64,000 nucleotides of DNA from contig OX597815.1 in the NCBI GenBank assembly GCA_951406725.2, positions 83,204,001 through 83,268,000 on the forward strand, in the 5' to 3' direction. Every line of letters begins with the position of its first letter. Positions within the stretch are counted from its first letter, which is position 1. Below the pieces are notes generated by a model that was not told where the DNA came from, searched no databases, and saw only the letters and a list, made by a program, of their open reading frames with translations. The position numbers were made by a program, and so were the translations under genes. Shown here one piece after another: positions 14,962 to 46,470 of the stretch. This DNA comes from Octopus vulgaris. Lineage: Eukaryota.

Positions 14962-15019
<58 letters not shown>

Positions 15020-15208
15020 GTTATCGCCATACTAATATGGCATTCTTATAAAAATAAGAAAAAAGCTGTCCGCTTATTAGCTCCATGAGGCCATCGCCTT
15101 AAGTTAGCTATTTGATACACAAACTGTATCCATATAACCTTCGAACAAGGGAGGTCAGTCGCTCCACACTACTTGACCGGCAGCTACAGAGATTGTCGGA
15201 AGCGACAC

Positions 15209-15279
15209 CTACTGGCTGGCTACGCTGCATTGAAAAGGGGCAATACCCCGAAACGCGTCTGTAGCTGCCGGTCAAGTAG
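15209..15279 (+). ncRNA. Type I hammerhead ribozyme, U3:A8 core variant (copy 1); predicted cleavage after C15259
   Basis: Stem I GCUGCA(15224-29)/UGUAGC(15260-65); core UUGAAAA; stem II GGGG-CAAUA-CCCC; GAAA; palindromic stem III ACGCGU; GUC triplet; stem I extends GGCUGGC/GCCGGUC and CUACU/AGUAG past a UAC bulge. Confidence 0.88.
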
Positions 15280-15570
15280 TGTGGAGCGACTGACCTCCCT
15301 TGTTCGAAGGTTATATGGATACAGTTTGTGTATCAAATAGCTAACTTAAGGCGATGGCCTCATGGAGCTAATAAGCGGACATCTTTTTTCTTATTTTTAT
15401 AAGAATGCCATATTAGTATGGCGATAACTATTATTTTCCGGGAACGCTGCCGCTGTTCTCTTTTAGAGAGACTTAGTTATTTTAATATTTCTATTATTGA
15501 AAACAAGTGGATGTATTCCACCGAAACTAGGTAAATAAAACCATCGAACAGAGATTGTCGGAAGCGACAC

Positions 15571-15641
15571 CTACTGGCTGGCTACGCTGCATTGAAAAGG
15601 GGCAATACCCCGAAACGCGTCTGTAGCTGCCGGTCAAGTAG
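15571..15641 (+). ncRNA. Type I hammerhead ribozyme, U3:A8 core variant (copy 2); predicted cleavage after C15621
   Basis: Identical to copy 1, 362 bp downstream. Confidence 0.88.
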
Positions 15642-15853
15642 TGTGGAGCGACTGACCTCCCTTGTTCGAAGGTTATATGGATACAGTTTGTGTATGAAAT
15701 AGCTAACTTAAGGCGATGGCCTCATGGAGCTAATAAGCGGACAGCTTTTTTCTTATTTTTATAAGAATGCCATATTAGTATGGCGATAACTATTATTTTC
15801 CGGGAACGCTGCCGCTGTTCTCTTTTAGAGAGACTTAGTTATTTTAATATTTC

Positions 15854-15890
<37 letters not shown>

Positions 15891-15901
15891 CATATATACA
15901 T

Positions 15902-15960
<59 letters not shown>

Positions 15961-16551
15961 AAAACATACATATATATATATACATATATATATACATATA
16001 TTATATATATTACAATTTTTCACCCTCATTTTGATTTTAATTCTTAATTAATATTGTTCTCAAACCGGCGTTAACTACTGCAGTGAATTGTTTATGTGGT
16101 ATTTATATCCGAGAATTTGGCGCGCTAGACGAGGGCATTTGAATATAACTATGGATGTAATAGGCCGTACTGCTCGCATTTTTGGCCACGTGTTAATATA
16201 CGGCGTGCAGTTCGACAAATTATATTCTTTACACACTCTACTGACGATCTGCAAATTAATTGTGTAAATAAAATTGCATAATTTATTAACAATGAAACAA
16301 TTATATGGGGTTAATCTATATTTTTGTTATTTATCATTTGTCCTGCCCGCTTCCATTCATGGCGTGTTAAATTTTTTTCTTGAGAACAACTTTTAGTGGC
16401 TAGCGTAAGGGAGTTCACTTTTAGTGGATTCCCTCTCATATATGTATTAATAATATTTACTGAATCTCAGTTTTTTATATGCTAAACCATTGGTGTTAAA
16501 CTAATATTATTAAATTAATATCCAATTGTTCATCCTCATTTTGATTATACA

Positions 16552-35024: not shown

Positions 35025-35915
35025 TATTATTAAAGCGGCTAGAGTCACAGCAAGACATAAGGAGGTCAAGAACCGAAACGAAAATAAGAACCAGAAAAAA
35101 GAGCAGAAGTTATCTAACTGGCAGGAGAAGGCCTTGCTGGCTGTTCACAAAGATAGTTGCAGTAAATAGTAGTAGTGAGACATGGTTATGTTTGTAGAAA
35201 GGAAGGGTAAAAAGGAAGACAAAAAGTGTGTTAGTAGCAGCACAAAATCATGCATTAAGGACTAATTGGATAAACACCAGGGTCGACAAATTCCAAATAG
35301 ATTCCTAATGTAGGCTATTCAAATCAAAAGAGGAAATCCCTACTGATATACTAAGTGAATGTATCATGCTTGCACAGAAATACAAGAAAAGACATGACAA
35401 CCTAGGGACAGTAATCCACTGGGAGTTATATAGAAAGCTAGGATTCGAACTTACTGATAAATGGTATGAACATGAGCCTAGTCAAGTACTAGAAAGCAAG
35501 AAATACAAGATGTTGTGGGACTTTAACATTCTGACCGACAGAGTAATAGATGCTAGAAAGCCTGATGTAGATGCAGTAGATAAAGACAATAGAAAGTGCC
35601 ACATAATTAACTTTACAGTCCCAAATGATGAAAAAAATCAATATGGGAGGTATAGAAAAAATAGCAAAAATACCAGGACGTAACTCTTAAATTACAAAGA
35701 CTAAGGAAAGTGCGAGTGAAATGTATCCCAGTAGTTATAAGCTGCATTAGAAACTTGCTCGAAACATTTCAACATATGCATAGAGGAAAGAGCTATAACA
35801 CGTAGTTTAATACAGCTCCAGTATTATTAGGGACAGCTAGAACACTTGGTGGGGTTTTAGGCATCTCAGGATACTCGTTGTATCCCGATGCTATGAATAT
35901 TTATTTTCCAATAGT
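35025..35915 (+). mobile_element. Dong/R4-clade non-LTR retrotransposon 3' relic (zinc knuckle plus restriction-like endonuclease)
   Basis: AAQNHALRTN...CRL...ILSEC..LAQKYKKRHDNLGTVIHWEL...KWYEHEP...LWDFNILTDRVIDARKPD...EKIAKYQD...LLGTAR; flanked by trinucleotide arrays. Confidence 0.9.
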
Positions 35916-40779: not shown

Positions 40780-41232
40780 TTACATATGGCTAACAACTAA
40801 GAGCTTCTAAACCTATATCCAACGTTTCTAGGGTTACATAGTCAAATTTTCAAAGATTAGACTAAACAAGGAAACATTCTTCATTGAAAAATGCAAGCCC
40901 AAACTTAACCATTCCAACATACTTATACAGAGAAATTCACTCCAAAAGAAAGGCAAGAAATTTTAAGCGATTATCTTCCTTACACCGGAAGAAATCACTT
41001 ATTACCTCCCGTTATCTGGAACTCTTCTCAACGTAAACATAACGATAACTCTCCTCAACGTAAACATAACGATGTAAGAAATTTGAAAAGCTGAACGCGA
41101 AACCGGTCATTTCTTCAAAAACTATGTCATTGTATAAAAACATTTATAACATTCTTCAGACATATTGACTCAAATATATATTTTTTAACCTTTTAAAACA
41201 AGCCTTCTGTAGTTTTTTCACTTTTTACTATG

Positions 41233-46130: not shown

Positions 46131-46189
<59 letters not shown>

Positions 46190-46470
46190 CTTGAAAAGTA
46201 CGTGGAACAAACCGGTGCTGCAATCTCGAGAATTACGTGGAACTTAGGTGCTGCAATCTCGAGAAATATATGGAACAAATAGTGGCTGCAATGTCGAGAA
46301 GCACGTGGAAGAAATAGGGGCTGCAATAAGGGTGGATCATTTGCCCTGCTTGGAACCGCTCAAATACCCCGGAAGGTGCTCGAATATTAAGTGGTGTTAC
46401 CTTAGTTCACTGGTAGTGAACAGCTGACACTCTAGTACATCTCTAGCGTTAGAAGCTGTGCAAAAGCAAT
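46190..46470 (+). mobile_element. Dong/R4-type extreme 3' end with a 4x reiterated 33-35-bp 5' segment
   Basis: LEKYVEQ.GAAI repeated four times, then LLGTAQIPRKVLEY*, 3' UTR and a TAA-like tail. Confidence 0.7.

Follow-up and report, generated by a model that had tools for sequence, protein, structure and literature searches.

A young retrozyme with predicted hammerhead ribozymes in the Octopus vulgaris genome, its Penelope-type insertions and a site-specific LINE

The 64-kb stretch of Octopus vulgaris DNA analyzed here (hereafter, the window) contains a two-armed insertion of a young, non-coding repeat with predicted hammerhead ribozymes. Judged from its sequence, the repeat is a real, young retrozyme and would add a new member to a known class, the non-LTR retrozymes. 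We consider it probable that the repeat has an snRNA-type promoter, that its RNA cuts itself through double hammerheads to give 362-nt circles, that these are recopied into (TA)n by a Penelope-like element (PLE), and that a LINE parasitizes the repeat.

The insertion is flanked by (TA)n at 14966–15016 and 15857–16010. On the left, an inverted arm of 177 nt (15014–15190, minus strand, unit positions 73–249) lies with its short end against (TA)n, shows one mismatch to each unit copy and overlaps the forward arm by 5 nt. The forward arm consists of unit 1 of subfamily A (15186–15547, plus strand; 362 nt, non-coding, 41% GC) and unit 2 (15548–15859, plus strand; 312 nt, positions 1–312), which meets the right (TA)n with its long end. 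The two units form a direct repeat with a period of 362 and exactly two differences (15334/15696 and 15382/15744), and the longest frame from stop to stop in a concatemer of the unit is 55 aa. The inverted arm, the (TA)n setting, about two differences between the direct repeats and the absence of a long ORF had been described in a first-pass annotation and were found again here, as were two identical type I hammerheads with a U3:A8 pair located 362 nt apart. That annotation overlooked the rule of one long and one short end and the site-specific LINE.

Hammerhead 1 (15214–15273, plus strand) has an extended stem I with a UAC bulge, the core TTGAAAA with U3:A8 (15230–15236), stem II GGGG-CAATA-CCCC (15237–15249), GAAA, CGCG and TC, with the palindrome at 15253–15258 and GUC before the predicted cut at 15259/15260. 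Hammerhead 2 (15576–15635, plus strand; core TTGAAAA at 15592, predicted cut at 15621/15622) is identical. Both show the type I layout, namely, a YUGANRA / GAAA / UH core with a 3:8 pair, an open stem I and a closed stem II. Their loop elements presumably resemble the tertiary-contact elements of the Schistosoma Sm-alpha hammerhead; PLE hammerhead dimers were reportedly the subject of work by Lunse et al. in 2017.

According to the folding analysis, stem I including the UAC bulge has z-scores of -3.1 (71 nt) and -4.6 (115 nt), and the 362-nt monomer has a z-score of -6.2. For a transcript with both motifs, the unconstrained prediction gave a double hammerhead (z -7.0) with both cores open and the stem III palindromes ACGCGU, which the earlier annotation had pointed out, paired between the two motifs. 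An Rfam hammerhead match, proposed earlier as a check, did not appear: the search found no family at the gathering score and no hammerhead family at E ≤ 10. The motif is not a product of chance, because 1,528 exact matches (754 + 774) were found genome-wide and none for the reversed-pattern control. Covariation in the stems among genomic copies, also raised earlier, was found in a comparison of 16 rows, where 90% of the cells were paired versus 21–45% in slid controls. Three pairs were altered on both sides (outer stem I, the closing pair of stem II and the palindrome, ACGCGU/ACAUGU), these compensatory changes representing few events between two or three subfamilies; conserved core positions were invariant and N7 was variable.

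The U3:A8 pair is present as first described and was overrated there, being a published natural and active variant with approximately 1,300 hits in S. mansoni according to PMC4209133 and reported as natural and active in PMC3088659 as well. Within the same genome, two autonomous PLE families carry it in their terminal repeats. The ribozyme and its U3:A8 pair are, in short, ordinary and already published features. As for activity, PMC4209133 reports poor cleavage of minimal PLE-type hammerheads, and 1/9 Xenopus retrozyme dimers cleaved in a recent test (10.64898/2026.07.22.740005).

Several other strings were seen in the window. A degenerate second hammerhead-like string at 15496–15535 starts exactly at the long end and overlaps the promoter-like motif described below; it was rejected as a second hammerhead, its stem I being out of register and its core broken in subfamily B. 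There is a single weak hammerhead-like match at 41083–41115 (U3:A8, 2-bp stem II, palindrome ACCGGU) and a tandem repeat of 35 nt with 4.1 copies and 78% matches at 46187–46327. The 124-aa frame at 35309–35683 (plus strand) may resemble the restriction-like endonuclease region at the C-terminus of a non-LTR element.

A search of the 2.8-Gb genome with the unit gave 188 matches in the 40 scored of 1,012 candidates, with full units 99–100% identical on many contigs, which bears out the earlier description of a young tandem unit and shows it to be dispersed. Sister subfamily B (2,724 candidates, 40 scored) is 82% identical and shares the 362-nt period and the ends, and a third subfamily has the loop CAAAUA. 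The family thus consists of non-coding tandem units within the 150–450-bp retrozyme range, each with a hammerhead, dispersed, recently mobile and without an RT of their own; any target duplication, which in retrozymes exceeds 4 bp where present, would be masked by (TA)n at most ends. The earlier proposal of a retrozyme candidate stands with regard to independence from a coding PLE, and is less novel than supposed, since mollusc (mussel) retrozymes of 350–390 bp have been published together with their circles (PMC7229834).

The non-LTR retrozymes of coral, mussel and axolotl, as described in PMC7229834 and 10.64898/2026.07.22.740005, resemble the octopus unit in being non-coding 150–450-bp tandems with one type I hammerhead per unit (helix I of 6 bp, helix II of 4 bp, palindromic helix III), in the self-paired monomer and in the presence of PLEs in the same genome. 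The octopus unit differs from them in the U3:A8 core within a canonical-shaped motif and in its arrays, which are short, dispersed and two-armed, lie in (TA)n and combine a long end with a short one; moreover, units of kindred type in mussel, coral and axolotl accumulate as circles (PMC7229834), whereas cleavage and circles are predictions for the octopus unit. It has no homology to the sampled pseudo-LTRs (pLTRs), in contrast to 24/57 homologous Xenopus families in 10.64898/2026.07.22.740005. A literature search, with Repbase, subscription journals and supplements outside its scope, found no cephalopod retrozyme, no LINE targeting a retrozyme, no account of two-site PLE-type mobilization and no paper joining 'retrozyme' and 'Tx1'; the supplements of PMC7229834 and PMC4209133 may list such repeats.

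The insertions have a regular anatomy. Among 109 distinct complete arrays, 77 are two-armed with the arms pointing outwards. Outer ends fall at unit positions 240–256 (short) or 300–316 (long), approximately 60 nt apart, and both are CTATTAT-like and run into (TA)n; TA-rich DNA adjoins 148/166 canonical ends versus 3/32 5' ends. A long end is paired with a short one in 63/64 two-armed arrays in which both ends are canonical (p 7e-18 versus independent ends), a count that leaves out 13 two-armed arrays with a non-canonical end, comes from samples biased to complete copies and should be read with L071/L085 looking like a segmental duplicate. Arm lengths range from 22 to 1,827 nt, the longest comprising five units, and many junctions overlap by 1–10 nt.

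Recurrent variants were present in both arms in 39/55 cases (shuffled arm pairs: mean 6%, maximum 32%); in 16/55 they were confined to one arm, mostly as single-copy changes. One array (L117) carries five private variants in all its units, and another (L027) mixes two haplotypes. That both arms share one haplotype points to twin priming from a single template; a circle would be the simplest such template and is the probable one, with homogeneous linear multimers as the alternative. In L027 (L113:2699–2818), three variants belonging to another haplotype occur in a single stretch where the arms meet, which suggests that copying switched there from one RNA to another.

No enrichment of inner arm ends was seen at the cut site (positions 73, 77, 77 and 78 among 114 ends). 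An arrest of the arms at the point of cleavage was accordingly rejected; 12 ends scored '1' proved to be blast edge effects located slightly upstream. Hot spots of inner ends were observed at unit positions 106–130 and approximately 325–362 (15291–15315 and 15510–15547 in the window), at the base of the long hairpin that bears the hammerhead; RT pausing and annealing of complementary cDNA ends are candidate causes. Taken together, the insertions show an inverted 5'-truncated copy, a one-ended tail and a microsatellite target, the tail exceeding the published 30–40 bp. The one-sided tail with an inverted copy is the footprint published for PLEs (PMC8557442), and the genomic evidence that the unit is mobilized in the PLE manner, by a two-site mechanism, is strong.

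The genome contains autonomous PLEs with intact RT-CxxC-GIY-YIG frames of 781 and 784 aa, U3:A8-type cores and (TA)n ends, one long and one short. The two autonomous insertions examined follow the same long/short rule as the unit, with tails of 38 and ~31 nt. By family, the tail measures 38 nt for both the 781-aa and the 784-aa elements and ~31 nt for a third family, compared with ~60 nt in the retrozyme. The EN+ PLEs with Neptune/Naiad-type insertions, as described in PMC8557442 and PMC4209133, share with the unit partial tandems, an inverted 5'-truncated copy (PMC8557442), a one-ended tail, a (TA)n bias and a U3:A8 hammerhead variant. By comparison with them, the unit has no ORF, a tail of ~60 rather than 30–40 nt and a canonical-shaped rather than minimal hammerhead.

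An autonomous PLE using the unit as its pLTR, which the first-pass annotation had envisaged, was not found among 72 PLE loci or four families: BLASTN of the unit against the 72 loci matched only an independent neighbor in L049, and no sequence is common to the unit and the four sampled families (781-aa, 784-aa, L060 and a very abundant GC-rich one). Screens of 61 and 70 unit-bearing loci, duplicates included, likewise showed the unit joined to no RT-GIY-YIG frame. The unit neither flanks an RT + GIY-YIG ORF nor shows pLTR homology within the four families sampled, and a GIY-YIG family search with two protein searches revealed no coding parent. PLE-like hits in five loci (L064, L092, L126, L154 and L161) are separate neighbors across (TA)n or a decayed fragment. 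Mobilization by Penelope proteins in trans, as proposed earlier, is thus backed by PLE-type ends and by intact RT + GIY-YIG frames in the genome, while no helper was found among the four sampled families, which share no sequence with the unit and, where measured, differ from it in tail length.

Three apparent links to coding elements were rejected. A 13-nt word common to the unit and the abundant PLE family is part of a simple repeat and is on the opposite strand, and just one kind of end was seen in that family. At C1:162.62 Mb, two motifs separated by 5.7 kb were considered as pLTRs but actually flank a LINE. In L126 (830–1013 and 1739–1922), a decayed N-terminal RT fragment of a PLE is joined directly to a subfamily B unit as an inverted duplicate; this copy is decayed and the join is not decisive.

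Some details of the coding families were recorded on the way. In the young, Neptune-like 781-aa family (L054:768–4468; G000:C6:133.34 Mb), an upstream ORF, open for 479 aa and containing coiled-coil-like and repeat regions, precedes and overlaps the RT-CxxC-GIY-YIG frame. Copies of the 784-aa family (L329–L343, 3' ends) have a hammerhead-like motif with U3:A8, GCAA replacing GAAA and the palindrome ACCGGU, and two ends ~38 nt apart. In the very abundant family (L304–L323, 3' ends; 15,820 candidates), the hammerhead-like core lacks A6, and every copy seen has just one (TA)n end.

The LINE between the two motifs 5.7 kb apart is a 5,352-bp element with a zinc-knuckle (CCHC) ORF1 and a 1,140-aa APE-RT ORF2 with a zinc motif; the nearest solved structures of its endonuclease are L1-type endonucleases. 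It is a low-copy element, with 40 candidates for its 3' UTR genome-wide. Among 30 fetched 3' ends, the 20 with at least 96.4% identity were all followed by unit position 13 versus 0/10 older ones; 11 weaker partial 3'-UTR matches were left unfetched, and one of these turned out to be an additional insertion. Altogether, 21/21 young insertions, at 16 places, end at unit position 13, and 17 of them (16 full-length and one 5'-truncated) have the full 17-bp duplication. The remainder comprise three copies with altered 5' junctions and, within an inverted arm, a 69-nt copy whose duplication spans 10 bp; one tandem consists of five copies.

Because the duplications carry a local G/A variant on both sides and near-identical LINEs lie in different subfamilies, the insertions represent independent targeted events. 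The target 17-mer occurs 1,237 times in the genome (control, 0), and an endonuclease search found no near-identical LINE copy elsewhere. The presence of a site-specific LINE in the retrozyme is, at the level of genome sequence, well supported. In one locus (L195), a PLE-type inversion lies inside the LINE, which suggests that the LINE and the retrozyme are sometimes copied together as a composite.

Relatives of this LINE end exactly at the first bases of the U1 and U2 genes (identified by Rfam), in (CT)n or in another hammerhead-like repeat, and the RT of a U2-sited relative is 99.6% identical to those of two copies in the other hammerhead-like repeat. The closest relative, located at a non-U1 site, carries U1 +1..+17 at its 5' end (L244:533–549), which suggests that its RNA began at the start of the target. 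A sister lineage (L246, L247, L249, L262, L263 and L248) occupies a second hammerhead-like repeat and U2 with 99.6% RT identity, and other lineages in the group of L246–L249, L262 and L263 are found in (CT)n and at an unidentified 16-bp site in tandem arrays. Copies of the U1 lineage at non-U1 sites (L183, L185–L193) have 3' flanks that mostly start with ATAC.

The Tx1-clade LINEs described in PMC4494074 (Tx1L in Tx1D, Keno in U2, Kibi/Koshi in microsatellites, Tx1-Mar) resemble the resident LINE in that they are low in copy number, occupy a fixed site of an snRNA gene or of another repeat, re-insert in tandem at the duplication and encode a zinc-knuckle ORF1 and an APE-RT ORF2; the relatives of the resident LINE lie at U1, U2 and (CT)n. 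The resident LINE differs in that its target is a hammerhead retrozyme, at the probable start site, and its lineage in having copies with 99.6% RT identity in both U2 and another repeat. The label 'Tx1' denotes resemblance here, as the 66 homologues compared include no named Tx1 reference.

The LINE site draws attention to a putative promoter. A matrix built from 14 distinct U1/U2 upstream motifs has its best site at unit positions 314–331 (10.5 bits; the next, 4.4). In the window copy, the sole proximal-element-like motif of this kind is at 15499–15516 (plus strand). The 10-nt word at 15506–15515 is identical to U2 upstream DNA, a length reached by 23 of 2,000 shuffles; the motif is a modest one, without the ATCA start of the U1/U2 motifs, and overlaps a hairpin. 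It lies 57 nt before the LINE cut in the unit, as in U1, and the distance is 56–57 nt in the retrozyme, U1, U2 and a fourth target. The insertion point of the LINE probably marks the transcription start of the repeat. A contig of depth 3.6 (X14) that covers the LINE 5' end from unit position 13/14 was set aside as evidence of the start, since contigs cannot show one.

Two empty 17-bp LINE targets are present in the window (plus strand): the first, at 15198–15214 (unit positions 13–29), has no promoter-like motif upstream, and the second, at 15560–15576, would contain the predicted start at ~15560. With the sole promoter-like motif in unit 1 and one hammerhead downstream of that start, the 15260–15621 RNA would arise only via read-through from outside. 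The predicted cuts after 15259 and 15621 agree with the release proposed in the earlier annotation, except that the copy's own promoter-like motif precedes one hammerhead only; if that motif acts as the promoter, the window copy is probably unable to free the monomer by itself and is probably a non-productive daughter. Arms long enough for the promoter and two hammerheads were found in 20/49 short-ended and 13/48 long-ended cases, in a sample biased to complete copies.

An snRNA-type promoter has been reported for newt satellite 2 (Coats et al. 1994, as cited in PMC2220036), which like the octopus unit is a tandem repeat with hammerheads; for the octopus unit, the promoter is a prediction. R2 co-transcription (PMC4494074) offers a parallel for the LINE, which would be transcribed from the promoter of its target, its site being the start of the repeat; in contrast to R2, the nearby ribozyme belongs to the host repeat and not to the LINE. 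The hammerhead lying 62 nt downstream could trim the 3' end left on the LINE RNA by read-through, and this end could pair with the next target.

The following cycle may be proposed for the repeat itself. It is likely transcribed from the snRNA-type promoter; the transcript is predicted to be cut by the double hammerhead into 362-nt monomers, which would then be closed into circles, and a Penelope-like RT/GIY-YIG protein likely copies the repeat back into (TA)n. The endonuclease would cut (TA)n, both target 3' ends would prime on one template at UAUUAU-ending sites (unit positions 249 and 312), the number of times that each cDNA passed round the unit would vary, and a few complementary bases would serve to join the cDNA ends. 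Sequencing-run contigs were rejected as evidence of circles: the head-to-tail joint was bridged in 4/4 runs and the sole contig of X10 was a 392-nt closed loop, but tandem DNA gives the same result; all 20 runs containing the unit are guessed RNA or of unknown kind and are represented by contigs only.

Other explanations were weighed against this cycle. The main one is that PLE twin priming acts on a linear uncut multimer from a few long source arrays, with a slow or dispensable hammerhead and no circle. Such a course agrees with arms that traverse the cut site repeatedly without stopping there and with the existence of 5–8-unit arrays, homogeneous source arrays would likewise give one haplotype per insertion, and most of the Xenopus dimers tested in 10.64898/2026.07.22.740005 did not cleave. 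We nevertheless hold it to be unlikely: compensatory change keeps the core, stems and palindrome across 18% divergence, several haplotype lineages have arms of four to five units and a long master would be needed for each, and 5' truncation would be expected to shorten the arrays with each generation; in addition, the mussel, coral and axolotl units of PMC7229834 accumulate as circles. Local growth of a satellite by unequal crossover or slippage after single-unit insertions, a route proposed for retrozymes in 10.64898/2026.07.22.740005, would explain variants common to the units within an array, but the arrays are short and dispersed, and crossover accounts neither for variants common to both inverted arms nor for the long/short end rule, which leaves this route with hardly any credibility.

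That the copies are ordinary 5'-truncated pLTR fragments of an unsampled autonomous PLE family might be argued from the inverted arm, the tail and the (TA)n target, all PLE features (PMC8557442), from the sampling of only four of the PLE families of the genome, and from the Xenopus retrozymes homologous to pLTRs (10.64898/2026.07.22.740005). This view is already largely refuted and very unlikely, as the arms are head-to-tail 362-mers of up to five units without coding DNA between them, the PLE-like hits in the five loci are neighbors or a decayed fragment, and the 72 PLE loci yielded only the independent neighbor. Mobilization of the unit by the resident APE-RT LINE instead of a PLE appears extremely improbable. 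In favor of this route, the LINE is a young element whose frames are intact and which is found physically linked to the unit, and LINEs are named as possible helpers in PMC7229834; its insertions, however, have 17-bp duplications at a fixed site, whereas those of the unit have (TA)n ends, inverted arms and a tail. Most of the sampled arrays lack the LINE (~21 insertions versus 1,237 target 17-mers), and none of the 109 arrays contained unit copies ending at position 74 with LINE-type duplications. Self-cutting to circles with PLE recopying thus remains the preferred reading.

A broader view, which we advance tentatively and with more doubt than confidence, is that of a three-level RNA parasite, in which a circular hammerhead RNA with an snRNA-type promoter is primed by a PLE at two sites and a LINE finds its targets by promoter or read-through RNA. 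If this is true, two fixed priming sites 60 nt apart on a circle would explain the PLE tail and inverted arm; the LINE would reach its targets via a 56–57-nt ruler from the proximal element or via pairing of read-through RNA, and would have switched from U1 to the retrozyme, where the host promoter and hammerhead make both ends of its RNA. As to which element helps animal retrozymes, PMC7229834 and 10.64898/2026.07.22.740005 have so far made proposals only, and PMC8557442 states that the mechanism by which PLEs produce tandem and inverted insertions with a one-sided tail is unresolved. Both questions find a small, defined test case in the octopus unit, a non-coding substrate of 362 nt that has two fixed proposed priming sites and is present in many near-identical copies. 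The U1, U2 and retrozyme targets, at 90–99.6% RT identity, form a matched set for asking whether the protein, the promoter position or the read-through RNA sets the target, and the LINE shows that the repeat is a target stable enough for specialization.
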